From the NCBI GenBank assembly GCA_037308085.1, contig CP147779.1, positions 2,656,001-2,720,000 on the forward strand: a DNA stretch of 64,000 nucleotides, read 5' to 3'. Position numbers and translations under genes: made by a program. The DNA is from Promethearchaeati archaeon SRVP18_Atabeyarchaeia-1. Its GTDB lineage: Archaea > Asgardarchaeota > Atabeyarchaeia > Atabeyarchaeales > Atabeyarchaeaceae. Shown in pieces: positions 7,371 through 58,930 of the stretch. The notes under the pieces are model-generated. The model was not told the DNA's origin. It made no database searches and saw only the letters and a list, made by a program, of their open reading frames with translations. Within the stretch, counting starts at the first letter, position 1. Every line of letters begins with the position of its first letter.

Positions 7371-7504
7371 TCGGAGAGGCTCTCCTCAATCGTGCACTTG
7401 TTTTGCCTTCATACCTTCGCGAATCCACAATTTACGTATCTCTTGTATACTGACCGGCAGCAAAGCGCTTCAGAGGGGTGAAACGCAAATACGAATACAG
7501 TCAC

Positions 7505-41733: not shown

Positions 41734-42057
41734 ATGAATATGATTAGTCGGATTTGGCACGGCTGGACTACACCAGCGAATGCTAGTACCTACGAGGCGC
41801 TCCTAAAGAGCGAAATCTTCGTCAACATAAAGAACCGTAAGATTCCCGGTTACCGAGGAATACACCTGCTTCGAAGGAATCTGGTCCGTGAAGTAGAGTT
41901 CGTAACGATCATGTGGTTTGACTCAATAGAAGCTGTTCGCACTTTTGCGGGTGAAGATTATGAAGTAGCAGTCGTCCCCTCAAAGGCAAGAGCCTTGCTC
42001 TCGCGGTTTGATGAACGCTCACAGCATTATGAAGTCAAGGCTGAAATGAAGACTTGA
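41734..42057 (+). CDS. antibiotic biosynthesis monooxygenase-like protein
   Basis: ISRIWHGWT and FAGEDYEVAVVP motifs. Confidence 0.8.
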   Translation: MNMISRIWHGWTTPANASTYEALLKSEIFVNIKNRKIPGYRGIHLLRRNLVREVEFVTIMWFDSIEAVRTFAGEDYEVAVVPSKARALLSRFDERSQHYEVKAEMKT

Positions 42058-42120
42058 TCGCATAGAATCAAGCACGTTTAATAGCAGACATGAGTTCATA
42101 ATTGAAAGAGGGCTTCTAGG

Positions 42121-42687: not shown

Positions 42688-42954
42688 ACTCAACAACTCT
42701 AGACAGAGATCGACGTTACGAGATATCTTCTCAGCTCGTTCTTCTGAGAAAGTGACTGGATTACCGATGCAAAGCCATTCTAAAGTCTCCAGACTACATG
42801 CCTGGAAACCAAAGCGATTAACTCCGTGTTCGACATCACACCGTTCAGATGTGTCACCGCCTTCATAAGGGAAAGAGCGATAGTCAGAGAGCCATACAGC
42901 ACAATCACCGAGAAGATATTTGAAGAACTAGCTGCTTCCAGCGCGCGGGGTTAG

Positions 42955-43773
42955 TTACTCAAAATCGGCGCACATCAACCCAAAATACGTTGGCGCCTGA
43001 TATGAGACGAACCTTGCTTTCATGGGAACACGCTCCAAAACGCCTTCCAGAATGGCCATTTGCCAGAGACTATCAGGCTTCGCGTTTTCCACAAACTGCA
43101 GATCCAGCGCAAGTATTTGCTTCAGGTTGTTTTCCCTTATTGCCTTTACCACCAGCTCGTCGTATTCTCTGGATGCCGGGTGAAAGCCGTACGGCCCAGA
43201 TTTGTCGTGGGCGTGCCCCTGATCTGCACTGGAGACAAAGGCTATCTTCCTCTGTGATTTCTCTGCAGTTCCAGCTATGACTCTGCCAAATTCCACAAGT
43301 TGGGTGAGCGGGATTTCTCTGGAAGGCGTCACGATGACTATTCGAGGTTTCTTCTTTTCTTTTGCGCCAAAAAACCATAAAGGTATTAGCACGCCCCAGT
43401 CCATCGGCATACAAGAGGCCGGCCCCTCACTAGTGCCATAATTCGCGCCTACAACGGGCAATCCTGCTTTCTTGGCGGCTTCGTAGATCTTTCGCGCGAG
43501 TTGATGGTTGCACTTGAAACGGGCGCTTACCGCCTTGCCATTATCTTCCAGGTTACCTGCAGAATATCGAGAGGTCACCACGCCGATTGTCCGGTCGAGC
43601 CTCAAGCCGTGAGGCGTCGCTATGATTATCGTGTCTGGTCTATGACTCCTCATATGCCTGGCTAACTCTTCCATGCCTCTTCTTGTTTCGCCGAAAGCCT
43701 CCAACTTGTCACCAGCAAGTTCAGGAATAGCCTCAGACCCGTGCGGCGCTACACAAGCATAAACAATACCCAT
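42955..43773 (-). CDS. LigB/MEMO-like extradiol dioxygenase family protein
   Basis: APHG, TPHG, MDWGVLIPL and SADQGHAH motifs. Confidence 0.85.
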   Translation of the reverse strand: MGIVYACVAPHGSEAIPELAGDKLEAFGETRRGMEELARHMRSHRPDTIIIATPHGLRLDRTIGVVTSRYSAGNLEDNGKAVSARFKCNHQLARKIYEAAKKAGLPVVGANYGTSEGPASCMPMDWGVLIPLWFFGAKEKKKPRIVIVTPSREIPLTQLVEFGRVIAGTAEKSQRKIAFVSSADQGHAHDKSGPYGFHPASREYDELVVKAIRENNLKQILALDLQFVENAKPDSLWQMAILEGVLERVPMKARFVSYQAPTYFGLMCADFE

Positions 43774-44513
43774 GGCATCTAGCTCTCACACCTACAAATT
43801 TAAGCTTATGTTTTGACTCCTTGAAGAAGATTCATACCTTTGAGCGCGGCGACAACCCCACGACCGCTTGGAACGACGGCATCGAATCAAGAATAAGAAG
43901 AGGGAGATTTCGGTCATTCCTGCCCGTCCTGCTGCTACCGATGCTCTTCTTGGACTTTGCCCTGAGAGTATCTTGAGGTTACAGTCTGCCAGAACTACGA
44001 GATCTTTATAAGGAAGAGAAGCGGACATATGTAGAACTCATCAGGTCTCTGTATACTATTTGGGGAGGCTGTATATCTCATCCAACTTGTATACCCACGT
44101 GAAACAACGACTAGGGAATGGTGATTGAAGCTGATATCGAATAATAGAAAACAAAGGAGGTTTGCAGGAATGTGTAAAGATCTTGACGACGAGATCGTCT
44201 ACCTAGACGACTACGACGAAGATGTCAAAGAAGTCAAATCAGAAGCAGAACAGAAAGAACCGTCGATTGTTTTTTCGAAATGAAATCCGAAACGAATTTG
44301 CATTTCCCTGCTTTTACGCTGGAATGAAATCCGAACTGGATTTCGTGTTTTTCTGCATTTTGCCTGAACCTTCCCCTTCCTTGGCAACGGAACCACACCC
44401 TGTCGACCAAGTCATCATCGACCCGCAGTACTATGCCAAGCAACGAACTCGATAGAACTCGCGCTATCAGCGCGAAAAAAGAAGAGGGAATTGGGCAATC
44501 CCACGCTGGCCGT

Positions 44514-44672
44514 CTACATCTGGAAGCCTGTCTTGCCAGCACCCACATCGTCAGGGCAGTCTCAAGCTCCTCATGCTCCTCAGCATAATCGCTGACCTTG
44601 ATACCCCCCATCACAGCATCAATCGCCTACCTAAAAGCACGAGGACCAGCAGTAGAACGCTCGGGAGTAGGC
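44514..44672 (-). repeat. RLP last-exon copy 1 (degenerate)
   Basis: Encodes ...AFR*AIDAVMGGIKVSDYAEEHEELETALT...GFQM*; terminator-like T-tract at about 44474-44490. Confidence 0.9.
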
Positions 44673-44902
44673 CACACCTTGCACTGCATGATTATGGTTC
44701 GACGGCTCACCTTACGCAGTGTGGTTTACTTCTATTGAGACTCGTGTAACCACTTTTAGTTGCAGTGATGCAAGGAGAATGATTCGAAATATGAACCAGT
44801 GTGCCCCTCGTTGAGCTATCTCTGGATTTGCTTAACAAAAAAGAGGGATGGAAGCTCTGCAGGAAGGCCGATGCCACAACCGGGATGACGTCATGGTCTG
44901 TG

Positions 44903-45550
44903 CTATTTGCGCCTCATGTACATTAGGGCTGCTACGATCACAAGAAGGGCTGCTGCTCCCCCAGCAACCAATACAAGCGTCAGCGGTATGCCGCCCGACT
45001 CGATATAATATGAGTTCAGCGTGTAGTTTTCCGTTAATCCTGCTCCATTGTTGTATCTCCAAACGAGGAGGACGCCGGTGAGTTTGTCTATGTAAGCTAC
45101 GACGTTGATGTCCATGATTGTTCCATTGATGTAGTTGGCTGTCCAGTAGCGCCCAGCGATATGATAGTTGGAGACCGTTGAGTTGAATTTCCAGCCTCCT
45201 GAACTAGGATACGGTGCCTCTCCTGCCGTGATGTTCGCTGCTACGAATCGCCAAATGCCATATTGGTACACATTCACATCGAAGGTGCCCGAGTGAGTAT
45301 TGTTCACGGAACCTCCCGGGTTGTACTCGGTCTTCTCTAGTGTGAGTACTGAGCCGCTGACTGCGGTGACGCGAACCCTAATTGCGTTGATAGCAAAGCC
45401 CGCCGCACTATAGGCGTAATCGTAGTAGGCATTTGTTCCCACAACTGCTCCCGGCTTAGTGTAGTCTGCTGCGCGTGTTGGGGCAAAGCTTGAGGAAACG
45501 ACCAATAGAATCGACAATGCCACCAGCGCGCAGGCTATTCCCTTTCTCAA
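44903..45550 (-). CDS. secreted or surface protein with C-terminal membrane anchor (cassette cargo)
   Basis: Signal peptide, Tyr/Asn/Thr-rich body, TM segment plus RRK tail. Confidence 0.8.
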   Translation of the reverse strand: MRKGIACALVALSILLVVSSSFAPTRAADYTKPGAVVGTNAYYDYAYSAAGFAINAIRVRVTAVSGSVLTLEKTEYNPGGSVNNTHSGTFDVNVYQYGIWRFVAANITAGEAPYPSSGGWKFNSTVSNYHIAGRYWTANYINGTIMDINVVAYIDKLTGVLLVWRYNNGAGLTENYTLNSYYIESGGIPLTLVLVAGGAAALLVIVAALMYMRRK

Positions 45551-45771
45551 GTGTTGTTACTCTCCATCTTCTTTCCCTATTCGCCCCTTATTGATTGATT
45601 GAGTATGTATCGTTTCAGTATTTTAAGTTTGCATCGCGTCAGCTACGGCCCTCGAGGCTTCTGGATCGCAGCTTAGGGTCGCTTGACGTTTTTCCCAGTC
45701 TCTTAAGCGCGCACGCTTACTAAGGCAAAAAGAAAAGTTGAGGAGAATCGAATTATTCTCCTTCAGCGCTC

Positions 45772-45805
45772 TTACATCTGGAAGCCTATTTTACCAGTAC
45801 CATCT
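45772..45805 (-). repeat. RLP last-exon copy 2 (short)
   Basis: GTGKIGFQM-TAA, followed by hairpin AGGAGAAT/ATTCTCCT and a T-tract. Confidence 0.75.
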
Positions 45806-45887
45806 TCACTCTGAAAAACGGAGCCGACGAGAACTCCACACCTTGAAGCAGCCAAAAACCAAATTAAAACTACTAAGATCTATTCTG

Positions 45888-46256
45888 CTATTTCTTCCTA
45901 TCCAAGTTTTCCTTAACTCTATAGCTCACTATTCTCTTTACTAGGTCAAATGGAATTGGCTTATTCATAGGAAATCTGACGGTACCTTTGCTTACTTCAT
46001 AATCAGACAACTCTTCTTTGAATGCCTCAATACCTGATGAAGTGGGATAAAACCCAATATGATTCTTAAAGGCTGCAAAATGAACCAAGTTACCATTTAA
46101 TTTGAAAGTAGGAATTTGATAACTGATTGCCTCTTCTGCTTTAGGCGCTGAGTCCCTAATTGCCTGCCTCAGCTCCTCCAAAATCCTCTGCACATTCTTA
46201 GGAAAAGTAGCAATATACTCATCTATCGTTTTGAACACTTTCCTAGGTGTTGCCAT
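45888..46256 (-). CDS. DUF1801 (YdhG-like) protein (cassette cargo)
   Basis: TIDEYI, ISYQIPTF and HIGFYP motifs; AT-rich. Confidence 0.88.
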   Translation of the reverse strand: MATPRKVFKTIDEYIATFPKNVQRILEELRQAIRDSAPKAEEAISYQIPTFKLNGNLVHFAAFKNHIGFYPTSSGIEAFKEELSDYEVSKGTVRFPMNKPIPFDLVKRIVSYRVKENLDRKK

Positions 46257-46386
46257 AGCGCTTCCCTGCAATCAATATTTCTTAGACGAAAAATCACCCA
46301 GAACCTAATGAGCACTCCGATTTAAAGACACAGATCCAATTCCAGCACGCGCATGCGCCATTTCACTCTGTTCGCTATATGCGGCC

Positions 46387-46671
46387 TCAGGCAACCTCAT
46401 GATAGAAGTTAACTTCGATGCCAGCCATAATCGGTCCGATATTCTTGAAAAACTCCTTATAGTATGGCGTCGAACCATGGTACTTCAAGGCTTCATCGCT
46501 CTCATATTTCTCAAAGATAAGGAATTGGTTCGGGTTTTTGACGTCTTGGTGGAGAACGTAGGCTATTGCACCAGGGTCTTTACGGACTTTGGGAGCAAGC
46601 TTACGGAACTCCCGCTCAAATTCCTCTCTCTTACCCTCAACTACCTTGATTACAGCCACTACAACAATCAT
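46387..46671 (-). CDS. putative quinol monooxygenase (ABM) protein (cassette cargo)
   Basis: DPGAIAY...FLIFEKYES...H pattern. Confidence 0.85.
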   Translation of the reverse strand: MIVVVAVIKVVEGKREEFEREFRKLAPKVRKDPGAIAYVLHQDVKNPNQFLIFEKYESDEALKYHGSTPYYKEFFKNIGPIMAGIEVNFYHEVA

Positions 46672-47039
46672 GGCCTAAATACCTCCTCTCGGTGATGGCG
46701 ACAACAAAAGATGTACACCATTCAACATATCAAAATATCGAGAGGGGCCGTAAAATACTGGTTTGGACTTTGAAGCGTGGGCTATAATGGTTAGTGTTCA
46801 TAGGATGAAGCATTGGGCAGAAACCACCAAAAAAGAAGGTTGTAGGTCTATAGAATAGAAAATTGTGCCTATGGTCTCATCTACACAATTCGACCTTGAG
46901 TCATAATTCCATCCCATCCCCTTAGGTCAAGAAATGCGACTATCTCAAATAAGATAAACAGGGATGAGTCTCTTGACAATGCCAGTGCGCCAGAAAAAAG
47001 AAAAAGAGAGAAGGATTTACCTACTACAGCTCGGTTCCC

Positions 47040-47193
47040 TCACATCTGGAAGCCTGTTCTACCACCGCCCCACTTCGTGAGGGCAGTCTTAAGCTCCGAA
47101 TGCTCCTCAGCATAGTCACTGACCTTAATACCCTGCATCACAGCATCAATAGCCTGCCGGAAAGCATGAGTATCAACCGCTGAACCATCTTGG
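47040..47193 (-). repeat. RLP last-exon copy 3
   Basis: In frame QDGSAVDTHAFRQAIDAVMQGIKVSDYAEEHSELKTALTKWGGGRTGFQM-TGA. Confidence 0.95.
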
Positions 47194-47376
47194 GGAGAGA
47201 GAGTTATTAGGGAATGACTCGCCTACCTACTGTGAACAGAAACTCAATCCATCCAAATGACATCTTGCAACGGACAAAGCCAGCTTCTAGTCTTGAATCG
47301 ATCGGAACGCGCAGAGTGAGCTTTAGCTGTGGGGAATCGCAGCCGGATACGACTAACCTGCGAGCGGGGTATTAGA

Positions 47377-47658
47377 ATGCAAGTGGAGGAGATACAGAAG
47401 AAGATTGCTCCCGCGCTAAGGCGTTACGGTGTGGCGAGAGCCGCGATCTTTGGCTCATACGCTAGGGGAGAAGAGAGAAAAGGAAGTGACATAGATATCC
47501 TCATCGAATTCGAAGGAGACAGGAGTCTACTCGATCTCGCCGGACTCAAGATCGAACTTGAGGAGGTCTTGGGAAGAAAGGTGGATGTCCTAACTTATGA
47601 CTCAATTCACCCTTTGCTTAGAGAGCGAATTCTGAATGAACAGAAGGTGATCCTATGA
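47377..47658 (+). CDS. MNT nucleotidyltransferase antitoxin
   Basis: [15 protein letters not shown] (GS-X10-DXD). Confidence 0.92.
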
Positions 47659-48023
47659 AGAAGGATCCACTAGTATTCGTTGATCACATTCTCGAAAGCA
47701 TAGAAACGATAGAGGAATACGTTCGAGGAACAACAAAAGAAGAGTTCATGAGTTCGAAGAAAACTCAAGACGCTGTGATTAGAAGAATCGAGATCATTGG
47801 AGAAGCTGCAAAGAACATTCCGGAAGACATGAAGAAAACCCATCCCAACATACCCTGGAAAAGAATAGCCGGAATGAGAGACATACTGATCCATGGATAC
47901 TTCGGCGTCGACTTGGGATTAACGTGGAAAGTTGCCAGCGAAGAGATCGAGGAATTGAAGAACAAGATTGCGAAGGTAAAGAAAGATCTCCAGAAAGCAC
48001 GAGAAAAGGTAGCCAAGCAATAG
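47655..48023 (+). CDS. HEPN (DUF86/HepT-like) RNase toxin
   Basis: EIIGEA and RDILIHGY (R-X4-H); overlaps the MNT gene by 4 nt. Confidence 0.92.
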
Positions 48024-48074
48024 CCCCAAAAAAGAAGAGAGAGAGAGGGATCTTCCTATTCCTTCTCGGTTCCC

Positions 48075-48193
48075 TCACATTTGGAAGCCCGTCTTACCCG
48101 TGCCCCACTTCGTCAGGGCAGTCTTAAGCTCCTCATGCTCCTCAGCATACTCACTAACCTTGACACCCTGCATCACAGCATCAATCACTTGCC
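48075..48193 (-). repeat. RLP last-exon copy 4
   Basis: QVIDAVMQGVKVSEYAEEHEELKTALTKWGTGKTGFQM-TGA. Confidence 0.95.
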
Positions 48194-48559
48194 CATGAGC
48201 CATTGTTCAACCCAGCAAGTTTTCAACCTTGCAGCGCCTCAAGAAAGGGAATTGAAGAAGTTGACTACAAGTTGGCTTCCTCTGAAGCATATTCCCAAAT
48301 GCAATGGAATACTTCTATCTTTGTGTCGGAGCCTGTAAGCCAATTATAGACAACATATCTCTAGCCGTGAAGACAGATTCGACCTTGCATTGGAACCATG
48401 CGATGTGCCCATTGTTTGCCACATACTTTGTTCGTTCTTTCAGCACTTCGAACAGCATCCCTTCTTCAACCTCGAATACGCTGTATGACATAGATCCATG
48501 ATCGTCCACAACAAAGAAAGACTCTCTTTCGTATGTCGGGTGCGGTTTTTGGGTTGGTC

Positions 48560-49567
48560 TTAGCTTCTAGCAGGCCCTTTTCCGATAACCCTCAGTTTCG
48601 TCGTAAGAGGTGTGAGCGGAAGTCGTCGTGCCTTGATGGGGCCTTCGGGAGGCTTGCGTGAGATTTTCGGCTTAACGTTGGTTGGGTACACCCGATATAT
48701 TCCGTCCTCAATGTCATTAGGTACTTTCCAGAACCACGTATAGCTGTCTTGTGCATCGATAGAGAAGTCTTCGTCTATTCTGAAGGTGAGAGCTTTGCTG
48801 AAGTCGTCCTCTGTGCTGATTCGTTTGTCCTGTCTCGCTACTGCCCACATGATGGTTCCCCTGCGGTACCATGCCGGAGCACTGCCTGAGTCAGCCAAGC
48901 TGGTCAGGGTTATGCCAACTTCGCCCCCAGCCTTGCATGTCAGCCGATCCATTGTCCAGTCTACGATCCCGTAATCGTATCCCGGATTTGATTGAAACGT
49001 GACCCCGAGAGCGCCGTACGCAAGAATTCCGAGAACGACGATCAAGACGTAGTCGGGATACAGAATCGCCCAACCCAAGATAAACACTCCAGCAATGAAA
49101 GCCCCATAAACGCAACTCACATACAGTTGCAGATGACCATGTTCATACTTTGATTTCATGAACCCGGTGAGCTTGAGGTTTAGGGCGCTCTCAATGAGAC
49201 TTGCTCGCGTTGCTGCTGCATCCGCACTAACTTGGTAGATATGATCAATCAAGTGAAGCGCGATAATGAGTATCACAGTGACGGCCAGGACAGCTGCCTT
49301 AACGATATCTGGCAATACCGTGCCGATTGTCCCCGTCGGGATGAGTACGGACTCTGTTGCCAAGAGTGCTGTGATGAAGCTGAAGCCATATTTCCTCAAA
49401 CCATTCAGGCGTTCCTCGAAGCCATCAATCACTTCTCGTGCTGCCTTCCATTCCATTATGAGGTTGTTATTACTGTCTTCTCCTTTGTCAGTACCCGCGC
49501 TTCCCCCCTCCTTCACCGTTCTGATAAACTTCAGTGGAAGCACTGAGTACAGGCTACTATTTAGCAT
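48560..49567 (-). CDS. hypothetical membrane protein (cassette cargo)
   Basis: 335-aa ORF, 4 TM segments then a beta-rich C-terminal domain. Confidence 0.65.
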   Translation of the reverse strand: MLNSSLYSVLPLKFIRTVKEGGSAGTDKGEDSNNNLIMEWKAAREVIDGFEERLNGLRKYGFSFITALLATESVLIPTGTIGTVLPDIVKAAVLAVTVILIIALHLIDHIYQVSADAAATRASLIESALNLKLTGFMKSKYEHGHLQLYVSCVYGAFIAGVFILGWAILYPDYVLIVVLGILAYGALGVTFQSNPGYDYGIVDWTMDRLTCKAGGEVGITLTSLADSGSAPAWYRRGTIMWAVARQDKRISTEDDFSKALTFRIDEDFSIDAQDSYTWFWKVPNDIEDGIYRVYPTNVKPKISRKPPEGPIKARRLPLTPLTTKLRVIGKGPARS

Positions 49568-49925
49568 TATTGGGCTCTACGCAGTGAGATGGGTAGCGAT
49601 GAGAGTCATGCGGATCAGCCTTTTAAGTCGATCTGCCCAAACGCGGAAACGGAGAATTTCGCAGACCTTTGCCTGATGTCATTGGCACACTACTATCAGA
49701 TTAGCGCACATGCCTCTTCCCTTCTCCTCCTTCTTTGTTCCGCATAACTGCGGTGGAACTACTGGATAGGAGGCGCAATTTAGCGTTATTGGGCGGTGAA
49801 GGTGGGAGGTCATCGCAGCTACCCCCGCACTTTTCTCCCACCCTGTTTTTTGGCGCGCGCCAACTCCGTCCGTCTAGTAAGACTGCCAAATCAAGAAAGG
49901 GGAACGGAAATTCATTTATTCCCGA

Positions 49926-50062
49926 CTACATCTGGAAACCAGTTCTGCCACCGCCCCACTTAGTCAGAGCAGTCTTCCCAAGCTCCTCATGCTCCCCAGC
50001 ACATCCATTGACCTTGATGCACTGCATCACAACATCAATAGCCTGACGAAATGCACGAGCAC
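49926..50062 (-). repeat. RLP last-exon copy 5
   Basis: ARAFRQAIDVVMQCIKVNGCAGEHEELGKTALTKWGGGRTGFQM-TAG. Confidence 0.93.
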
Positions 50063-50207
50063 TGAGGGCAAATGGCTGCCCATAATCCGCCTGTCATTGG
50101 ACGCGCGCACACTCTAGGGCGAAAAATGCCAACGGGAGAAGCGGTATAAAGGCGTTTGACGTAAGCCTCCTATGACGTATTCATCCTGAGGTGGGAGCGC
50201 AGAGAAG

Positions 50208-50600
50208 ATGGATCGTAGCAAAGACTGGATGGATGAAGCTGAAAGCGATCTTGATCACGCAAGAAGCGATCTCAAGCAAGGATTTAACAATTGGGCATGT
50301 TTCTCTACCCAGCAGTCTGCCGAGAAAGCCGTCAAAGCAGTATTCCAGAAAATGCACGCCGAGGCATGGGGCCACTCGGTAGCGGATCTTCTCACAGAAT
50401 TGTCAAAGAAACACAAAATCCCAAATGAACTTCAGGACAAGGCACTCGAACTCGACAAAGCGTACATACCAACTAGGTATCCTAATGCCCATCCATCGGG
50501 ATCCCCAAGAAGCAGATATACAAAAGACGAAGCAAGAAGGCTGATTAGCAATGCAGAGGAAGTACTCCGGTTCTGCAAAGATCTTCTATCCAAAGTATAG
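50208..50600 (+). CDS. HEPN domain protein
   Basis: WACFSTQQSAEKAVKA, GHS and AYIPTRYP motifs. Confidence 0.92.
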   Translation: MDRSKDWMDEAESDLDHARSDLKQGFNNWACFSTQQSAEKAVKAVFQKMHAEAWGHSVADLLTELSKKHKIPNELQDKALELDKAYIPTRYPNAHPSGSPRSRYTKDEARRLISNAEEVLRFCKDLLSKV

Positions 50601-50913
50601 CCGTGATGACTTACTGGAACTACTGAAGCTAAAAGTGGAAGCCCTTAAGAGAGTTCTCCAAGTATCCCTCGTCGCCTTATTTGGCTCATACGCAACAAAC
50701 TCCTACACCGCTGCGAGTGACATTGATTTACTCGTCGTCTACAAAGGACATGCCAAGGACGCTTATACAACAGTGAGGAAAGCATTTGGACTCCCTCTAT
50801 TGGAGCCTCATGTGTATTCCGAAGAAGAGTACACCACAATGAAAGAGACTCTTCACAAAATGACTGCTAATAGTATCACCATCTATTCAGATGGTAGCCT
50901 TCCACAGGGCTAG
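50551..50913 (+). CDS. MNT nucleotidyltransferase
   Basis: LFGSYATNSYTAASDIDL. Confidence 0.9.
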   Translation: MQRKYSGSAKIFYPKYSRDDLLELLKLKVEALKRVLQVSLVALFGSYATNSYTAASDIDLLVVYKGHAKDAYTTVRKAFGLPLLEPHVYSEEEYTTMKETLHKMTANSITIYSDGSLPQG

Positions 50914-51043
50914 CAGACGAGAAAAGTGAATGAGTCGGAAAGAAAATCTCCCAGTCCGACCTGCCGCTATTCTATCCAACCAAGCGCACGCCACGACTCT
51001 TCAAATACAAAAGGGCAAGTTCTTTGACTCCCTTCTCTACCAT

Positions 51044-51176
51044 TCACATCCGGATACCTGTCTTACTAGCATCCTAATTCGCCAAAGCAGTCTTCAACTC
51101 CTTATGCTCCCCAGCATAATCACTGACCTTGATGCCCTGCATCACAACATCAATAGCTCGCCTGAGAGCGCCAGCA
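51044..51176 (-). repeat. RLP last-exon copy 6 (degenerate)
   Basis: RRAIDVVMQGIKVSDYAGEHKELKTAL... ending ATG TGA. Confidence 0.88.
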
Positions 51177-51334
51177 ACGTATATGCAATACCAGACCTTC
51201 CCAGAATTCCACAAGTCAACTCGCTAGCTGATTAGAGGACAAGCCTCCAGCCTCGCAACGCTTATCTTTCAGCTTGCTAATAGAAGGAACAATAGAACCT
51301 TAGTCAAAGCTAATCGCCTCTTGCCGGTTATGAC

Positions 51335-51769
51335 TTGGTGGGGAACTGCACCTTGGTCGAGAATCGCGCTGTCAGCACAACAAGCGATGTCGAGCATGCG
51401 ATCATTGAAGCCGTTAAACCGTTCAATAATCTCGTCCTAGTCTACCTTTTTGGCTCCTTTGCTAGCGGAAGACCTCATGCCTTCAGCGACGTTGACGTCG
51501 CCATATATTTCCGAGAGTTCTCTATGGCTGAATTCATGAAGGTTCACGGAGCTCTGAGCAGAGCGTTGGGAGCACAAGTGGACACCATTCCCCTCAATAT
51601 AGCCCCACCTCTCTTGAGATACGAGATATTGAAAAAAGGGAAACGGCTGATCTCCAAGGATGAGACAATCAGGATCGCCTATGAATCCAGAGCCATCTTG
51701 GAAGGATTAGACGAGAGACCACTAATCGAGGCAATAAGAGAGGCAAATCTGAGGAGAGTCTTGATATGA
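51335..51769 (+). CDS. MntA-like nucleotidyltransferase antitoxin
   Basis: YLFGSFASGRPHAFSDVDVA and LNIAPPLLRYEI motifs. Confidence 0.9.
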   Translation: MVGNCTLVENRAVSTTSDVEHAIIEAVKPFNNLVLVYLFGSFASGRPHAFSDVDVAIYFREFSMAEFMKVHGALSRALGAQVDTIPLNIAPPLLRYEILKKGKRLISKDETIRIAYESRAILEGLDERPLIEAIREANLRRVLI

Positions 51770-52182
51770 CCGCTGAGTCTGTCAGAGATGCCATCAACAA
51801 GCTAAAGGAATTATCCTCGAAGACATCAAGAACGATTTTCATGTCTGACTGGAAGCTTCAGGGAACAATCTTATGGCTATTATACACCGCTTTGCAGGGA
51901 TGCATAGATCTCGCCGCAAAACTAATCTCAGCCATGGGGAAGAAAACCCCCGACTCGTACTCCGATGCCTTCAGAATCCTTGGCGAAGCAAACGTTTTCA
52001 CCCCAGAAGAAGCCGAACGCTTCTCCAATATGGCAAAGTTCAGAAACGTACTAGCCCATTCCTACACCAGCGTCAACCTGGAACTTGTATTCGAGCAGCT
52101 CCAACATGGCATAGCTGACATCGAAAGCTGCCTAAGGAAACTCGTGAAGGAATCAAGCAAGCACAATCTCCTGCTCCCATGA
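51766..52182 (+). CDS. HepT-like (DUF86) HEPN toxin
   Basis: PDSYSDAF and FRNVLAHSY (R-X4-H); 4-nt overlap with the MNT gene. Confidence 0.9.
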   Translation: MTAESVRDAINKLKELSSKTSRTIFMSDWKLQGTILWLLYTALQGCIDLAAKLISAMGKKTPDSYSDAFRILGEANVFTPEEAERFSNMAKFRNVLAHSYTSVNLELVFEQLQHGIADIESCLRKLVKESSKHNLLLP

Positions 52183-52237
52183 GACCGCAAACCACCAAGG
52201 AAAAGCAGAGGGAGTTTGGCGAGTGCCCCAATGCCGC

Positions 52238-52330
52238 CTACAAATGGAAGCCTATCCTACCGGCACCCGCTTGGTCAAAGCAGTCTCAAGCTCCACATGC
52301 TCCTCAGCATACTCGACCAGCTTGATGCAC
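52238..52330 (-). repeat. RLP last-exon copy 7 (degenerate)
   Basis: IKLVEYAEEHVELETALTK...GFHL-TAG. Confidence 0.85.
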
Positions 52331-52369
52331 AGTGACAAGCGACCTTCAATTCCTTCCAAGGTCTACATG

Positions 52370-52816
52370 CTATTCATCCTCGTACTCCTCTTCTTCAACC
52401 TCCAAGTCAAGACCAAGCGTCCCAAGCTCCTCTATAGCCTCCCTTTTCGGCACATCCTTCGTGAAGTCTATATCATAGAGACCTCCATAAGCACTCCAAC
52501 CCCTCCCGATAAGGATCCTCAAGGTCTTAGCACAATCCTTGAGCCTGGAATGCAGTTCCTCTCCAAGCTTCTCCAACTCAACGGCGAAATCCTCGCCAAG
52601 CTCCTCACCCTCCAAACCGTCAAGCTCCCAAGCAGGCTTGCCAAACAAGGAAAGCATAACCCTACTAAACTTCCCAGCACCATCGCTATTGCCCACACAG
52701 ATCACCATCCAACTAGTGCTCCCAGCCTCGGCTTTAAAGACCACACCAGAAGGAAGAACCACTGTCGCCTCCCCACAAGGAGAGACAAATACAGATCTTT
52801 CTGGATGATGGATCAC
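52370..52816 (-). CDS. hypothetical acidic protein (cassette cargo)
   Basis: 148-aa ORF filling the space between repeat copies 7 and 8. Confidence 0.55.
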   Translation of the reverse strand: MIHHPERSVFVSPCGEATVVLPSGVVFKAEAGSTSWMVICVGNSDGAGKFSRVMLSLFGKPAWELDGLEGEELGEDFAVELEKLGEELHSRLKDCAKTLRILIGRGWSAYGGLYDIDFTKDVPKREAIEELGTLGLDLEVEEEEYEDE

Positions 52817-52873
52817 CGCACCAATGACGCAAAAAAAAGTGGAGTGGAGAACTCATGATTCTCCCCCAATTCT

Positions 52874-52936
52874 CTACATCTGAAAGCCTGCCCTGCCCGT
52901 ACCCCATTTCGTCAAAGCAGTCTTAAGCTGCTCGTG
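52874..52936 (-). repeat. RLP last-exon copy 8
   Basis: HEQLKTALTKWGTGRAGFQM-TAG, followed by a hairpin and T8 tract. Confidence 0.92.
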
Positions 52937-52951
52937 ACTAGGCAGGCACTT

Positions 52952-53848
52952 TCATTTTTTTATCTGCTCGAGTGATGCTTGGCGTTTTCCGAGGAAGAAA
53001 CCTGCGGAGCAGATTAACGCAATCCCAACTACCAGAAAATAAGGGGAATATGGAGAGGGGGAGGCAAATTGATAGATTAGAAAGTAGATTATAATGGGCG
53101 CAATCTGTTGGGGGATTTGTTGCACGGGCACTACAATGCTCGCATTTCCAGCGTTAAGCGCGTATTGGTAATGGCCTAGTCCGATGACATTTGCCAAGAT
53201 CGCGATTGTCGCAGAAATCAAGAAGATTATCCATTCGAAAATGCCCGCGCTCCCCCCGAGAACAATGGTCAGGGAAACTATCATTGGCTGCAACCAAATG
53301 TTTCCCACTACGAATGGAAAACCTGTTCCCAGCGCAAGCAAGATAGCCCTGTGTTTTTCTGCTTTCCTACCGGAATAAAATAGTCCTAGCCACAGGGCGA
53401 TGAACAAAATAGAGAACAATGCAAGCCTTACATTAAAAGCAGCATCAAAGAAGTAGGTCAGGCTGCCAGCTATTGCGAGTTGGCTAAACCCAATTAGCGT
53501 AATCGCTACCGCCAAGAGAATAATGGCAAGAATCTCGAAGATTCTCAGGGACTCCTTCAAAATGAACACAGAACCAATTGCGAGAATAATGAAACCGGAC
53601 GCCCCTAACCCGGGCATAAGTGCCGCCCCGACAATGGCCTGGGCTACAAAGAGAAAAACAGAACTAAAGGCGACCATACAAATAATTCCTAACAGCCAAG
53701 TTTTATTTCGCACTAAGGATTTAACGAGACCCTTGTCCCGTCTCTCCGGCGCAGTATCATTAATCGCCTTTTTCTGAAGCACCTGTCCGAGGAAGTTCAA
53801 TAAGCCCGCCAAAATACCAAAAAGAACGCCAAGGACATAATCCGCCAT
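52952..53848 (-). CDS. DMT/NIPA-like membrane transporter (cassette cargo)
   Basis: GQVLQKKA, LVRNKTWLLG and ILKESL; 9-10 TM segments; AT-rich. Confidence 0.75.
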   Translation of the reverse strand: MADYVLGVLFGILAGLLNFLGQVLQKKAINDTAPERRDKGLVKSLVRNKTWLLGIICMVAFSSVFLFVAQAIVGAALMPGLGASGFIILAIGSVFILKESLRIFEILAIILLAVAITLIGFSQLAIAGSLTYFFDAAFNVRLALFSILFIALWLGLFYSGRKAEKHRAILLALGTGFPFVVGNIWLQPMIVSLTIVLGGSAGIFEWIIFLISATIAILANVIGLGHYQYALNAGNASIVVPVQQIPQQIAPIIIYFLIYQFASPSPYSPYFLVVGIALICSAGFFLGKRQASLEQIKK

Positions 53849-54010
53849 AAGTTCTTCACATTTCTTGATTTTTGGAGTTATGAGCATAAAGGAGTTGGAA
53901 GCACGATATTAGATTTGCTAATGACACAACCGAGGAAATCTTGGGGTTCCTATATGTATTAGGCTCACCTCAAACTGCAGAATTTTCACCGGTCAAAAGT
54001 CAACTGTGAT

Positions 54011-55324
54011 TCAGGTTTCGCCAAATTGATTTTCTAGTAGTAAATCTGCGATAAGGGTGGACCACCCAAAGTTTTTCGCCCCATATCCCTGTCCCGTAAG
54101 GGGGTTGTATTGTTCCCGGAATCCTGATCTGAGAACCATCTCCGCCAACCTTGCAGTAATTTTCGCAGCGATGTCCTCAAACCCGAGATGCTGGAGGCCT
54201 TTTACCACGTACCACGACATGCAAATCCAATTAGGTCCGCGCCAAAGAGTCATTAGGGACCCCCTTGGGTTAAATTTCGGGGAGGATTTGGCTACGCACG
54301 GCAGAGGGTAAGGCAACCAAAACTCCCCTTCGTTGAGTACGTGATCTCGGACGAGTCGTTCTGCTTTCTTCCCGTCTATGTCTAATATAAGTGGGAAGAG
54401 CCCTGAGATTGTTATTTCGGGGTATGCTTCACCCGTAACTGCGTCAATGGAATAAAAGAAGCCGGCATTTTCGTCCCAGCATCTTTGTTCCAGCGATTTT
54501 TGGGCGGTTGCAGCGCGCGTGCGGTAAATTGCGGCGTGATTTTCGTCCCCTGCAAAATCGCAGAGTTCTGCAAGCACCTGCAGGTTCCGGATGTAAATGC
54601 AATTAAATGACACGTCGTTCACGCAAAAATGGTTTGGGCCCTGGAGATTTTTAATGCGTTTGATGTCCCAACCCACTCCATTGTATTCGCGAATAATCGC
54701 ACCTAACCACCTCCCCGTGCGTATTCCAAGCAAGTGCTGAATGTGGTGGATATGGTCCCAGATAGGCAACAAATCCATGCCAGACTCCCACGGGTGGATG
54801 ATGGCGACTAGGCCATCCCCAGACACTTGTTCGCTCCGTTCCGCGTTTAACCAATCATAATACCGCTGCATTGGAGCGAGGATCTGGGACAAAAACTCCA
54901 GATCTCTTGTTTTTTCAAATACAGCTGTCACTGCCTGCGCGAGGAGTGGGGGTTGAGTGATATGGCTCCGGTCCTTTTCGGGCCATTTACCCCTGAACAA
55001 GAAGTCCCCCATACGAGGCTTAAACCCGGTCGCCGGTCGCCAATAAAGCATGTGGGGTATCATACCACTTTCGAATTGTTTGCGCGTGAGGGTGAGCAAT
55101 TCCTGCATCGCAATGACCGGGTCAAAATGCGCCCACATGATAGCATGAAAGCAACTATCCCAGAGCCACTGATGCTGGTACGTATCTTGGCTTGGACAAG
55201 TATAAGTGAAATCTACTCCCTTTACCAAGTTTCCCTCCAAGACCGCCCGCGCTCTCTTCACCAATGTATACGCATCGATGTTGGTCTTTTCGTTAGGGCT
55301 GTTCACAAGTGCATCATCTCCCAA
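54011..55324 (-). CDS. GH63-like (alpha/alpha)6 glycoside hydrolase
   Basis: QWLWDSCF, TQPP, HPWESGMD, WRGPNW, FREQYNP and FGWS motifs. Confidence 0.88.
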   Translation of the reverse strand: MGDDALVNSPNEKTNIDAYTLVKRARAVLEGNLVKGVDFTYTCPSQDTYQHQWLWDSCFHAIMWAHFDPVIAMQELLTLTRKQFESGMIPHMLYWRPATGFKPRMGDFLFRGKWPEKDRSHITQPPLLAQAVTAVFEKTRDLEFLSQILAPMQRYYDWLNAERSEQVSGDGLVAIIHPWESGMDLLPIWDHIHHIQHLLGIRTGRWLGAIIREYNGVGWDIKRIKNLQGPNHFCVNDVSFNCIYIRNLQVLAELCDFAGDENHAAIYRTRAATAQKSLEQRCWDENAGFFYSIDAVTGEAYPEITISGLFPLILDIDGKKAERLVRDHVLNEGEFWLPYPLPCVAKSSPKFNPRGSLMTLWRGPNWICMSWYVVKGLQHLGFEDIAAKITARLAEMVLRSGFREQYNPLTGQGYGAKNFGWSTLIADLLLENQFGET

Positions 55325-56060
55325 TGAAGTCTAGAAGTATCTTATTGAACTTGTCTGGCTGCTCGATCATAGGCATGTGCCCTGCTTCAAAAATCATCTC
55401 TAGTGTCGATCCCTCTATACTCTCATGGAGAATCGCCGAAGAAGAAGCGAGCATATCATCAGCACCACACACGATCAATGTCGGGACCTTGATCTCCTTG
55501 ACCCTTCCGCTCAGGTCTATTCCGTTCAGAGCATCAAAGTCGTTAGCCAGGATGCTCGGATCGAAATCCGCCTCCACCCTAAAGTACTTCATTAACGAAG
55601 ACAGGTTCCCTTCAGTAAGCATCTTTGGAGACAAGAGCCTATTCAACAACTGGAGGCCAGCTTCCGCAGGATTATGGCGAATGCGGGCTGGGAGGTCGCC
55701 CAGGTTCTGAAACTTGGCACCGCTATCGATTATGATGAGTCTCTCAACAAGCTCTGAATGCTCCAGCGCTAGCAGTTGAACTATCACACCACCCATCGAG
55801 TGACCCGCAATGAGCCCCCTCGCTACCTTAGCCTGCTTCATGAAACCGACGACATGTCTGACGTACCCCTCTATTGTCGGCTTCTCCTTCATGCGCTCAG
55901 ACTTACCATGACCAGGAAGATCGATTGCAATAACCCTCAACCGCTTCGATAGTTCAGAAAGCTGGTTGACCCAGTAGCTGCTCATTCCACCTGCTCCATG
56001 AATTAGAATCAGTGCCCTTCCTTTTCCCCTGGATTCATAGAAAGTCCTCAGACCATCCAC
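55314..56060 (-). CDS. alpha/beta hydrolase
   Basis: IHGAGG, DLPGHG, GHSMGG and AGH motifs. Confidence 0.92.
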   Translation of the reverse strand: MDGLRTFYESRGKGRALILIHGAGGMSSYWVNQLSELSKRLRVIAIDLPGHGKSERMKEKPTIEGYVRHVVGFMKQAKVARGLIAGHSMGGVIVQLLALEHSELVERLIIIDSGAKFQNLGDLPARIRHNPAEAGLQLLNRLLSPKMLTEGNLSSLMKYFRVEADFDPSILANDFDALNGIDLSGRVKEIKVPTLIVCGADDMLASSSAILHESIEGSTLEMIFEAGHMPMIEQPDKFNKILLDFIGR

Positions 56061-56173
56061 AGTAACGAAGGGCGTATGGCATTCAACTCCATGACGTTGA
56101 GTGGCAGTACTATTTCGCCGATCTGTCTTTTATTCCCTACGCACGCGGGGAAACCAGTCCACACTTGATCTTA

Positions 56174-56215
56174 CTACATCTGAAACCCTGCCCTAGCACC
56201 GCTCCACTTGGTGAG
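56174..56215 (-). repeat. RLP last-exon copy 9
   Basis: LTKWSGARAGFQM-TAG, about 80 bp after the real gene's stop. Confidence 0.85.
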
Positions 56216-56294
56216 TCTCGGGCTTCGGGGTAACCACACCAGTCATTTTAATCCAAAAAAGAAGGAGGGATTCCGCAGATCTCCCAAATGCCCT

Positions 56295-57664
56295 TCACAT
56301 TTGGAAACCTGTTCTGCCGCCGCCCCACTTAGTGAGAGCAGTCTTCAGCTCCTCATGTTCCTCAGCGTAGTCACTGACCTTGATACCCTGCATCACCGCA
56401 TCAATCGCTTGCCTAAAGGCTCTTGCACCAGCAGCTGGACCGTCCGGGTGAGCGTGGACTACGGGTCCATCAATTAAAGATGGACTTTCCGCCTCCGGAC
56501 CCGATCATGATGTTGTTGCCGAGCATTTTCATGGTTTTCTCCACGTGGCCGGCAGTAATACCACCGCTTGGCATAGGCATCGTCGGCTTGATATGCTGCA
56601 AAGGAAACTGTAATCGCTTCGCCATCATCAAAAATTTGTCCTCAAGCAACGGAGCTTTGCCGTAGGGCGCCGGAACCAGGGCTATATCGGTCCCACATAT
56701 GCGCGGTAGCTTGGACATTATGAGAGACGGGGATACTCCCGTTATTGGACTATAGCTGATTTCGCCAGCCTCTTCAGCCGTGTGCGCCGGCTATGTCCAT
56801 ATGCCCCATTATTGGCAATGTGTTTGGTTCTTCTGCTACCATGCGTAGGGCGTCGTATCCGACTGCGAGGTAGTTGATGAGTAGGGCGTTTCCGCCTGCC
56901 TGTTTGACTTTGTCGGCGTTTTCGAGTAGTTTGTCTACTGGGCCGGTTATGTTGCAGCAGTAGAGTGTCTTTTCATCTTTTTCTTTGTTTGCTTTTTCTG
57001 CTTTTTCCATGTAGAGTGGGACGCGGTCTTCTATTTTGTTGTATGCTGGGTTGGCGATGATTTCGTCGTCTTTTATACAGTCAGTTCCGCCTACTGCGGC
57101 GCCGTAGAAGAGTTCTGCGCCTACTTCGGGCGTGTAACCCGTCTTGGGTTTTATCATATTATTCAGGAGTGGCCGTTTGGGTATGTCCATGAGGTCTCTT
57201 ATTCCTTGGAGTCCGTGTTTGGGTCCTTTGAATCCTTTGAGCCATTGTTTGGGGAACCATAGGTCCATGAGTTTGATTCTTCCGCCCATGCTGAGGTTGC
57301 CGATGACTGTGCTGAGTAGCATGGGGATTTCTGTGCCGAAGTTTTCCCATGGGAAGCCTACTGCGATGATGAAGTTGCGGTGGTCTACTTCCTTTGGGAC
57401 GGAGTAGACGTATTCGGGTGTTTCCCAGATGCCGAGTACTTTTGCTTGTCGCTTGATTTTGAGTTCTACTGTTTCGCCTGGGACTGGGGTCCAGGTGCCT
57501 GTGCTTTGTTCTAGGGCTGCCATTTCTGCTACGTCAGTTATTGGTAGTGCGGGGTTGAGTCCTGCGAAGTAGAATCCGATGACGTATTTGTCTGTGTCGA
57601 GGCCGTCGAAGAATCCTTGGGGTTGGGCTTCTATGGGTATTTCGTTTGGTTTTTCTTCAGACAA
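56295..57664 (-). CDS. RuBisCO-like protein (form IV), 439 aa after splicing; exons 57664-56782, 56759-56487, 56458-56295
   Basis: EQSTGTW, IKPKTG, IKDDE, PMPSGG. It has HMD and PAPYGK where true RuBisCO has HRA and the H327 region, indicating an RLP. 1370 nt minus 22 minus 28 = 1320 nt, an open frame. Confidence 0.88.
56459..56486 (-). other. 28-nt bulge-helix-bulge pre-mRNA intron (intron 2)
   Basis: GCGG-AA^A-GUCCAUC-UUUAAUU-GAUGGAC-CCGU-AG^U; removal gives GGA GGC GGA AUC CAC GCU CAC CCG GAC (GGGIHAHPD). Confidence 0.85.
56760..56781 (-). other. 22-nt relaxed bulge-helix-bulge pre-mRNA intron (intron 1)
   Basis: AUAGCCG-GCGC-AC^A-CGGCU-GAAGA-GGCUG-GCGA-AA^U-CAGCUAU; removal gives GCC GGC GCA CUC AGC UAU (AGALSY) in frame. 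Confidence 0.78.
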
Positions 57665-57675
57665 TTTTCGGGTTG

Positions 57676-57744
57676 ACCTCCTTTCGTTTCTTGGTTTTTG
57701 TTAGAATTGGTTGTTGGTTTTAGAGTCTTCCGCATCGATATAAA
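57676..57744 (-). promoter_or_regulatory. TATA box and RBS of the RLP gene
   Basis: Minus-strand TTTATA at 57744-57739 and GGAGGT at 57681-57676 before TTG 57664. Confidence 0.55.
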
Positions 57745-57821
57745 CGTGATGGGGAGACTTCAATGACAGTCGATTCCCTTGTTTTCCGCAGGGGCATATG
57801 CTCTTTGGGGGCGTTGCTACA

Positions 57822-58280
57822 TCAATGGATCATTTGCTCCTTGATGGTGGTTGCGAGGATGGCGTCAAGGTTGTCTGGAGTCTTGCCTGCGTAGCCGATG
57901 GATGCAATGGGCTTGATCCTTGTTAGTGCCATGAGTGCTTCTATCCTTTTGATGATAAACTTGTATTTATCTGGGTCTGCTGAGTTTGCGAATGTGATGA
58001 GCTTCTTGCCGTTCAGGTCCATTTTGAAGAGCTTCTTTGTGTTCCTTCTGAGTAGCTTGGGTGCTCGGCATTCCTCGGCGCCGTGGCACTTCGTGCATGT
58101 GAGGCATGGTGCTCCGAGGGCGATTATGCTGTAGTCGCGTATGGATTGAGATTCCTTGAACTGCTTGTCTTGGAAGAGGGAGACATTCGTTCCGAGGTCT
58201 TCTAGACGGTTCCTGATCTTTTCTGCAAGGAGCTTCGTGTCACTGTTGTCCGTGTGATAAATGACTAGTGCTCTTGGCAT
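57822..58280 (-). CDS. flavodoxin-like protein
   Basis: ALVIYHT...TKLLAEKI and IIALGAP, with an extra CxxCxxCxxxxxC insert. Confidence 0.6.
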   Translation of the reverse strand: MPRALVIYHTDNSDTKLLAEKIRNRLEDLGTNVSLFQDKQFKESQSIRDYSIIALGAPCLTCTKCHGAEECRAPKLLRRNTKKLFKMDLNGKKLITFANSADPDKYKFIIKRIEALMALTRIKPIASIGYAGKTPDNLDAILATTIKEQMIH

Positions 58281-58582
58281 TTCTTTGGGCCCCTATGAGG
58301 TAAGTCTAGGTGGGGTTGGCTGTTCAACTATGGTGGTGAGCGCTTTAACTAGGTTTGTCAGTGCACTTTGAATAGCAGAAGCTCTGGTTTGTCATATGTC
58401 TTCCGACCCTCCTCTAGGCTTTCGATCTTGCGGTAGACGCCTACGGCAGCGGGTTTTTCGGTTATGCTGCATTTGTTAGAAAACTATTTTAGATAGATAG
58501 CAGAGGTATTTTAGATAAAAAGCAGAACTGATTTAGATAAAGGCAGAAACGTTTCAATTCATCGTAGGAGGATTGAGAAGTC

Positions 58583-58930
58583 TTGGTATTTGATTGGTAT
58601 CGTCGAAGGAAGCGAGCTTTCGGTAACAAGCGAAGCTCCCACTGGGGCGACGTGAGGAAGAAGTACCTGAAGACACACGGTACGTGCGCGGTGTGTGGCA
58701 CAAAGGATCATCTTGAGGTTCACCACATAGTTCCGTTTCACGTCGACCCGAGCAAGGAGCTGCAGCCGACCAACTTTGTAACGCTGTGCCAGTCGAAGAG
58801 TCACAATGACCACCTGATTTTCGGCCATCTGCTGGATTTTCACGCGATGAATACGAAAGTGGTCACCGACGCGAACACCTACCGAGGCGAACTTGCGAAG
58901 CGCAAGATTGTGAAGGGAGATTCAGGATAG
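58583..58930 (+). CDS. small stand-alone HNH endonuclease
   Basis: CAVCG...LEVHHIVP...NFVTLC...H pattern. Confidence 0.82.
   Translation: MVFDWYRRRKRAFGNKRSSHWGDVRKKYLKTHGTCAVCGTKDHLEVHHIVPFHVDPSKELQPTNFVTLCQSKSHNDHLIFGHLLDFHAMNTKVVTDANTYRGELAKRKIVKGDSG

Follow-up and report, generated by a model that had tools for sequence, protein, structure and literature searches.

The 64,000-nt stretch of DNA analysed here (the window, G000:C1:2656001-2720000) belongs to the closed 2.81 Mb chromosome of an Atabeyarchaeia (Asgard) archaeon and carries, behind the gene for a homologue of the RuBisCO large subunit (RLP), an array of small gene cassettes that is punctuated by nine partial copies of the 3' end of RLP. 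We consider it very probable that this array grew by accretion of cassettes tagged with an RLP tail at the end of RLP and was later rearranged by recombination among the tail copies. That the insertions were carried out by the general homologous or short-homology recombination of the host, and not by an integrase encoded on the cassettes, is a more evenly balanced proposition. A first-pass annotation of the window had described a gene-capture array bounded by displaced RLP 3' ends, and this description is supported by four such arrays: the one in the source genome (G000), those in its sister genome G002 and on contig C94 of another genome, G001, and the one on the metagenome contig L088. None of them contains an integrase gene.

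All nine copies lie on the minus strand in the same orientation as RLP (Table 1), and a repeat finder together with blastn and tblastn searches of the whole genome recovered each of the directly oriented copies that had been listed initially. Seven of them gave blastn E-values between 7e-6 and 1e-37 against the entire 2.81 Mb genome, while the two shortest, c56174 and c45772, were detected by tblastn or the repeat finder. Every copy reaches the stop codon, and the 5' ends are located +6 to +140 nt from the start of the last coding segment of RLP. The shared 3' end and the variable 5' truncation reported in the first-pass annotation were thereby reproduced, with the length range of about 35-160 bp to be replaced by 28-190 nt. 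Common to all copies are the last ~25-40 nt and the stop codon, and the copies differ even there. A run of at least four T follows within about 50 nt of the stop, typically at 30-45 nt, in eight of the ten ends (RLP included), in agreement with the terminator-like T-tracts initially seen behind most copies. RNAalifold gave no consensus pairs for a hairpin ahead of the T-run, and the z-scores of single folds were mostly between +0.5 and -2.8. Because the folds were weak and consensus pairs were absent, we abandoned the notion of an attC-like structure after the stop. Copy c56174 is separated from the stop codon of RLP by only ~80 nt and forms an empty micro-cassette.

The divergence among the copies is of the coding type. 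Pairwise comparison of 13 copies yielded 0.12, 0.08 and 0.35 differences per site at codon positions 1, 2 and 3, respectively, and the best-kept copies yielded 0.056, 0.056 and 0.306, values to be compared with 0.05, 0.08 and 0.44 for the true orthologue pair formed by the RLP genes of G000 and G002. Third-position differences were thus 2-5 times more frequent among the copies, indicating that they diverged mostly as functional coding sequence or were refreshed from such sequence. Most of the relic copies bear the allele type of the RLP genes of other lineages, and judged by these patterns the copies look like former functional gene ends.

The anchor gene itself matches the N-terminal and the catalytic domain of RuBisCO (PF02788 at 1.5e-7 and PF00016 at 1.6e-21). 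Its orthologues in other Asgard families are open frames of 441-456 amino acids (aa). The RLP gene of G000 is interrupted by two insertions of 22 nt (56760-56781) and 28 nt (56459-56486), as seen in an alignment with uninterrupted orthologues in which G002, G036 and G027 were included, and both insertions are also present in a contig from another sample (run X5, 55770-57101). The RLP tail is complete in G000 and conserved in the manner of coding sequence, leaving the target gene intact. It is 79-82% identical to the tails of the other three genes, vs 85-87% over the first 880 nt, and its nearest kin is copy c47040 of its own array (87%). For so short a segment, this divergence is suggestive of, and would fit, serial replacement or exchange between the gene end and the array.

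Table 1. Features of the array and its anchor gene, in positions of the window. Copies of the RLP 3' end are named after the position of their stop codon.
Feature	Position	Strand	Basis
RLP, RuBisCO large-subunit homologue, anchor gene	56295-57664	-	Pfam RuBisCO_large + RuBisCO_large_N
Resident last coding segment + T-tract terminator, the unit repeated in the array	56250-56458	-	
Copy c56174, about 40 nt	56174-56215	-	tblastn E 4.7e-4; repeat family D4
Cargo 1	52937-56173	-	Pfam
Cargo 1: alpha/beta hydrolase	55314-56060	-	Pfam
Cargo 1: MGH1-like glycoside hydrolase	54011-55324	-	Pfam
Cargo 1: NIPA-like transporter	52952-53887	-	Pfam
Copy c52874, about 63 nt, then T-run	52874-52936	-	
Cargo 2: acidic 148-aa protein, no known family	52370-52816	-	
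Copy c52238, about 88 nt, frameshifted	52238-52326	-	
Cargo 3: nucleotidyltransferase/HepT toxin-antitoxin pair	51335-52182	+	Pfam Polbeta/NTP_transf_2, HepT-like
Copy c51044, about 134 nt, in-frame stop	51043-51176	-	
Cargo 4 (TA50): HEPN/nucleotidyltransferase toxin-antitoxin pair	50208-50913	+	Pfam
Copy c49926, about 135 nt, 3-nt insertion	49926-50062	-	
Cargo 5: 335-aa membrane protein, no known family	48560-49567	-	
Copy c48075, about 119 nt, frame intact	48075-48193	-	
Cargo 6 (TA47): MNT/HepT toxin-antitoxin pair	47329-48023	+	Pfam
Copy c47040, about 158 nt, frame intact	47040-47197	-	
Cargo 7: ABM monooxygenase-like (46387-46671) + DUF1801 (45888-46271)	45888-46671	-	Pfam
Copy c45772, about 28 nt + T-run, shortest	45772-45800	-	
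Cargo 8: 215-aa secreted or membrane protein	44903-45550	-	
Copy c44514, about 150-190 nt, frameshift + stop	44514-44665	-	
Probable eroded distal part of the island	40881-44513	.	homologues bracketed elsewhere
Distal part: LigB-like gene	42955-43773		
Distal part: 188-aa membrane protein	42121-42687		
Distal part: ICMT-like gene	40881-41522		

Eight cargo packets separate the copies and are unrelated from one packet to the next, as had been noted before. The differing base composition that had also been attributed to them amounts to a modest range (41.9-50.1% GC vs 49.9% for the window) and is weak evidence; only the ABM/DUF1801 packet (41.9%) stands out. All three toxin-antitoxin pairs are encoded on the strand opposite to RLP. 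Beyond the last recognisable copy, the homologues of the ICMT-like and LigB-like genes are bracketed by RLP-tail copies in G002 and on contigs L094 and L095, or form the end of the array in L088, indicating that the island of G000 probably extends to about 40881. No recognisable tail copy is left between 40881 and 44513 in G000, and by comparison with the other lineages the distal copies of the island have probably been lost to erosion. For two cassettes, portions have paralogues at other places in the genome, namely 44901-45571, which covers cargo 8 (genome 2542406-2543085, 76%), and 49692-49841, part of one cassette (genome 513943-514092, 77%), and the short-read contigs branch at both of them.

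All Atabeyarchaeia sources that we examined have an array of this kind behind RLP or on a contig with an RLP tail. The order comprises only three genomes, and core genes are 67-86% identical at the nucleotide level across G000, G001 and G002. Behind its RLP gene, G002 has 9-10 tail copies across 22.7 kb; contig C94 of G001 (8.8 kb) has four and L088 eight across 16 kb, and several fragments are added by other contigs which, like L088, L094 and L095, derive from a Joint Genome Institute (JGI) metagenome project separate from the G000 assembly. Extra tail copies were detected neither at eight RLP loci in other Asgard families nor at 23 further loci of Asgard or bacterial RLP homologues, with up to 10-17 kb of flanking sequence; the relatives of RLP in public genomes were named as Thor-, Hel-, Hod-, Odinarchaeota and similar. 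Likewise, a scan of 2789 open-frame ends in G000 revealed no other gene with more than two downstream copies of its own tail. Within the sequences compared, the array is therefore specific to the RLP gene and to the Atabeyarchaeia lineage. Two partial 3'-end copies within 40 kb downstream were found for only two other frames (genome 605055-606734, minus strand, and 2211987-2214698, plus strand), which may be small arrays or tandem paralogues.

Gene order was not identical among these relatives and the cassette content turns over. Few cassettes are shared: TA47 occurs in all four arrays with 75-85% nucleotide identity and always antisense to the copies, TA50 in G000 and G001 (86%), the 215-aa cassette in G000 and L088, and one cassette of G002 also in L088 (86% identity). 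The shared cassettes are permuted. In G000, TA50 is followed by the 335-aa cassette and then TA47, whereas in G001 TA47 is followed by a unique 2.9 kb segment and then TA50; the LigB gene, which in G000 lies on the distal side of TA47, is proximal and inverted in G002; and the cassette shared by G002 and L088 lies proximal to TA47 in G002 but distal to it in L088. The strictly chronological array with the newest cassette beside RLP, which the first-pass annotation had proposed, is contradicted by this permutation in G000, G001, G002 and L088 and by the internal loss of 2.55 kb described below. The newest cassette of G002 is 10 kb long and contains a type IIG restriction-modification gene, a HerA-like ATPase and a 461-aa protein with multiple helix-turn-helix (HTH) modules, but no integrase; PHROGs and NCBIfam returned nothing useful for its unknown proteins. 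The 461-aa protein (L003 11487-12872, plus strand, in G002) has about five HTH modules and, by eye, a PD-(D/E)xK-like C-terminus, and it matches no family.

The boundaries of the exchanged unit can be seen in the alignment of TA47 from three genomes. Homology extends from the last ~75 nt and the T-tract of the upstream copy, through the two genes and then a conserved block upstream of them, to one junction at which the downstream copy begins; past this point, the genomes differ in how the 5' part of that copy has eroded, a 24-nt deletion in G001 being one example. Other cassettes, such as the one shared by G002 and L088, likewise retain their own cargo-copy junction and their orientation across lineages. 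These conserved junctions indicate that the exchanged unit consists of the rear of one copy, the cargo and the front of the next, that cross-overs take place inside copies, and that the 5' truncation belongs to the cassette and not to each event. A fresh illegitimate joint behind every truncation, as proposed at first, does not agree with the conservation of the cargo-copy junction in TA47 and in the G002/L088 cassette.

Variation within the population was visible in sequence contigs from four public runs of two studies, which were mapped to the array and of which two runs may be the source of the assembly. Contigs from all four tile the array and bridge copies; uncovered parts in the low-depth contig sets of X4 and X5 (e.g. 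54974-57241 in X4) were not counted as absence. In one contig of run X4, which stems from another sample, c44514 is fused with the initial 24 nt of c47040 and 2553 nt (44644-47172) are missing, so that this variant lacks the 215-aa cassette, c45772, DUF1801 and ABM. An assembly chimera in a k=31 de Bruijn graph is unlikely, since c44514 and c47040 share no exact stretch longer than 15 nt. The joint precedes the stop by about 130 nt and falls outside the ~25-40 nt shared by every copy, a position that would be predicted for homologous or short-homology recombination and not for a fixed core near the stop, although it represents one event and thin data. A joint in run X2 that goes back by 1117 nt (48158 to 47042, with a side of 40 nt) was considered as a trace of a circle and was not counted, as it is not in homologous register; it may reflect the arrangement of copies in another organism.

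According to Pfam, the window contains no tyrosine or serine recombinase gene, all matches in the genome being located elsewhere. Pfam and tblastn thus bear out the absence noted earlier, and the same was found in all four arrays: the G000 and G002 arrays gave no match to Phage_integrase or Resolvase, the larger open reading frames of the G002 and L088 arrays contain no integrase domain, and tblastn with the tyrosine recombinases of the genome produced no match with E <0.1 in any of the four. Altogether, neither an integrase nor a remnant of one was found in the ~35 cassettes of these arrays. Active integrative elements do occur in the G000 genome, along with three genes for non-Xer tyrosine recombinases. 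None of the integrase genes of G000 has a tail copy nearby, a scan of viral contigs with the tail peptide identified no relative, and with at most 87.6 bits against TIGR02249 (cut-off 265) none of the tyrosine recombinases of the genome qualifies as IntI. The motif AATTAACTTAT occurs twice in G000, 10,867 bp apart, and marks the element Yucahu-i (genome 2590417-2601284), which lies outside the window at a distance of about 110 kb from the array; both the att motif and this length are those published for Yucahu-i of Atabeyarchaeum deiterrae group 1 (PMC11529989), which identifies G000 as that genome and G002 as its sister, group 2. A total of 18 integrated elements were reported for these genomes (PMC11291895, PMC11529989). 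The 10-kb cassette of G002 was considered as a candidate for Yucahu-i and rejected, because AATTAACTTAT is absent from the G002 array. Two near-identical genes for tyrosine recombinases of 441 and 447 aa lie 108 kb apart in the genome (1554258-1555583 and 1661978-1663321), which suggests a multi-copy element.

On the reading that we favour, DNA from related cells, linear or circularised, would enter with cargo beside a partial RLP tail that includes the stop codon and T-tract. The incoming tail would recombine with the end of the resident gene or with any tail copy in the array, and the cargo would be inserted by a Campbell-type single cross-over if the DNA is a circle, or by a double cross-over if it is linear. 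RLP would keep a complete tail and a further tail copy would be left behind the new cargo, the tail acting as a portable address tag. Recombination between copies would then delete, move and exchange cassettes, with the result that their order would not be chronological. Host recombination is favoured as the acting machinery because ~35 cassettes lack an integrase, because the order is permuted and because the X4 joint lies off the shared core. We infer insertion, and not only loss, as the direction of events, and the involvement of circular intermediates and the nature of the enzyme are likewise deduced. In a more far-reaching form of this idea, which we put forward tentatively as one possibility, the array would represent an analogue of an integron without recombinase, in which the tail serves as homology tag and cassettes are gained, lost and swapped by short-homology recombination of the host. 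The last ~400 nt of RLP would then evolve as a separately exchanged module, which would explain the compositional chimera seen in RLP in all lineages and might be tied to the micro-insertions in the gene.

Several points weigh against accretion by host recombination. Neither an insertion event nor a circular cassette was seen, and the X4 variant rests on a single 355-nt contig with a depth of 4, which may show a loss or the state before insertion. With 73-88% identity over at most 190 nt, the copies are ill suited to classical homologous recombination. Recombination by homology alone would leave unexplained why only RLP is used as tag, how new cargo was first joined to a tail, and why orphan copies exist at 1.71 and 1.80 Mb in places free of RLP. 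In addition, no copy passes the start of the last coding segment of RLP, beside the 28-nt insertion, and this sharp 5' limit hints at a fixed boundary that would not be expected from plain homology. A recombinase acting in trans, or a divergent one missed by Pfam, could also be involved, considering that several cargo proteins belong to no family, as does the 461-aa multi-HTH protein.

The last of these points leads to the alternative that the copies are attachment sites and the cassettes are decayed or satellite units, comparable to cis-mobilizable elements (CIMEs), moved site-specifically by a tyrosine recombinase encoded elsewhere. We regard this as rather unlikely, though it deserves to be taken seriously. 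Direct repeats of the 3' end of a target around cargo are a classic footprint of integration, for which members without integrase are common (PMC7563491), the last ~25 nt and the stop are common to all copies, the restriction to a single gene would fit a specific site, and the newest G002 cassette resembles a plasmid-type element; the genome also offers candidate enzymes in its three non-Xer recombinases and its active elements, with Yucahu-i near the array. However, integrases and their remnants are missing from all four arrays, tail copies occur neither near integrase genes of G000 nor on viral contigs, the shared segment itself varies among copies, and the sole recombinant joint observed lies outside the segment common to the copies. 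The mechanism suggested in the first-pass annotation, homology-facilitated illegitimate recombination at the gene itself with a fresh truncation per event and a chronological array, appears improbable. It would account for the variable 5' ends of the copies, for a resident tail more diverged than the rest of RLP, and for the difference in composition between the first ~900 nt of RLP and its last ~400 nt, seen in all four lineages, as if the latter were an exchanged module. Yet it is at odds with the junctions conserved between lineages for each cassette, with the permuted order and with an internal block that is polymorphic in the population, and it leaves the orphan copies unexplained.

Slightly more improbable still is capture driven by breaks, in which cargo would be imported by repair from a foreign template after a homing-type nuclease had cut the RLP tail or a place close to it. 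A mobile HNH gene beside the array (58583-58930), the putative PD-(D/E)xK-like protein of the newest cassette in G002, the LAGLIDADG-like proteins that neighbour the copy on metagenome contig L092 and the ending of all copies at a boundary beside the 28-nt insertion would be in line with this, but none of the nucleases is kept at the locus from lineage to lineage, the recognition site is undefined, homing replaces sequence rather than duplicating the end of its target, and such nucleases are common as selfish cargo in variable islands. In a genome that comes from a metagenome and whose short-read contigs break at the copies, one might suspect that repeats had been collapsed or strain variants assembled into a chimera. 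We give this explanation hardly any credence, because the region is tiled, and the copies are bridged, by contigs of four runs from two studies, the published genomes were validated with Nanopore and PacBio long reads (PMC11291895), and like arrays occur in G001, G002 and the JGI contigs of another project.

The closest known analogues, by their organisation, appear to be CIME arrays without integrase at the 3' ends of genes. In streptococci, CIMEs and microCIMEs are found beside integrative and conjugative elements (ICEs) as well as elements that are integrative and mobilizable (IMEs) at the 3' ends of fda, rpsI and rpmG (PMC7563491). As in the present array, direct repeats of the 3' end of a housekeeping gene bound cargo there, which measures 1-13 kb in streptococci, the gene stays whole, and the order and nature of the units vary between strains (PMC7563491). 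The empty units of 130-220 bp in streptococci (PMC7563491) compare with a unit of ~120 nt between the RLP stop and c56174. In contrast to the about ten units here, streptococcal arrays comprise two or three, and they depend on the known tyrosine integrase that an ICE or IME at the same site encodes (PMC7563491), an enzyme that none of the four arrays has. Further differences are the divergence of 12-27% among the copies, the joint outside the shared core and the Asgard host.

Integrons, including archaeal ones, share with the RLP locus an array of small, mostly promoter-poor cassettes that are rich in toxin-antitoxin genes and each end in a repeated element. Unlike in integrons, there is no IntI at the array or above the family cut-off in the genome, the delimiters consist of RLP coding sequence and T-tract instead of attC hairpins, and the orientation of the cassettes is mixed, with three toxin-antitoxin pairs opposite to RLP and TA47 possessing its own conserved upstream block. 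Tycheposons and cargo-only satellites in the islands of Prochlorococcus reportedly form tandem remnants split by partial target copies, many of them without integrase, and the RLP array resembles them in its tandem units, partial copies of the target gene and lack of an integrase. It differs from them in that tycheposons have tRNA targets and defining tyrosine recombinases, whereas the array has no recombinase and ARAGORN found no tRNA in the window, although the program may miss the intron-rich tRNA genes of this lineage. In tandem islands at tRNA and tmRNA genes and in archaeal integrated elements, the incoming 3' end replaces the old one, which is pushed outward, giving rise to arrays of partial ends; the present case is distinguished by its protein-coding target, its very small units and the absence of an integrase or split integrase gene. 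The orphan C-terminal modules of rhs and cdiA are partial 3' pieces downstream of a full gene that are able to recombine with it. There, a short conserved junction is combined with variable toxin tips and immunity genes, while here the tail is conserved and the cargo unrelated.

The RLP locus is a lineage-wide hot spot that gathers toxin-antitoxin, restriction and metabolic genes at one address without an integrase borne by the cassettes, and since the population is polymorphic, it is still active. If insertion runs on general recombination, it would provide a simple integron-like route of gene capture, one that might have escaped notice in other places; the discovery of a recombinase acting in trans would define a new archaeal integration system with a protein-coding gene as target. 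Either way, the array may serve as a natural marker of gene flow among Atabeyarchaeia strains. The searched passages of the main texts of the two genome papers mention neither RuBisCO nor the array (PMC11529989, PMC11291895).

The insertions in RLP vary by lineage. G002 has only the one of 28 nt, in the same place and with its sequence largely kept, L090 combines the 28-nt insertion with another of ~36-39 nt ahead of the MDIAG codons, and L089 lacks the 28-nt insertion and has a break in the frame after SYSPIT. The codons flanking the insertions remain conserved. Their properties would fit mobile micro-introns in a lineage rich in tRNA introns, 92-95% of the tRNA genes of these genomes being intron-bearing (PMC11291895, PMC11529989). 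The first ~900 nt of RLP consist almost exclusively of codons ending in A or C (region 56782-58400, minus strand), and with a third-position G/T fraction of 0.12 they are the most extreme among 1942 open frames of the genome (mean 0.48, sd 0.05). A small gene upstream of RLP (57822-58280) has a similar bias in codon endings. RLP switches to a G/T-rich composition near alignment column 900-960 in all four lineages, and a local switch of skew is located at about 56.75 kb, with the extrema of the genome-scale skew elsewhere. A replication origin or terminus at this locus was rejected, as the extremes of the cumulative GC and keto skews lie elsewhere.

Three orphan copies of the RLP tail are located far from RLP, at genome 1709987-1710067, 1711216-1711283 and 1800956-1801054; none was seen in G002. 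The copies at 1709987 and 1711216 flank a single open reading frame for a 165-aa membrane protein, downstream of an ABC-2 permease gene, and G001 and G002 show no conservation of the sequence flanking the orphan copies. Rfam searches at gathering thresholds returned nothing in the window or at two orphan loci.

The HNH gene at 58583-58930 (plus strand) encodes an endonuclease of 115 aa and lies ~900 nt upstream of RLP. The gene is mobile, as indicated by homologues elsewhere in G002 (1273746, 85% nucleotide identity) and on another contig of G001. Contig L092, which carries a single RLP-tail copy, encodes LAGLIDADG-like proteins at 6545-7804 and 11801-12721, one of them with an HTH_17 domain, and a TIR-domain protein at 3700-4767. 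A sequence of ~189 nt at L001 7402-7590 has no match in Rfam and is present in several copies in G001 and G002 with 82-93% identity; it may be an intron-rich tRNA gene, another small RNA or a mobile element.

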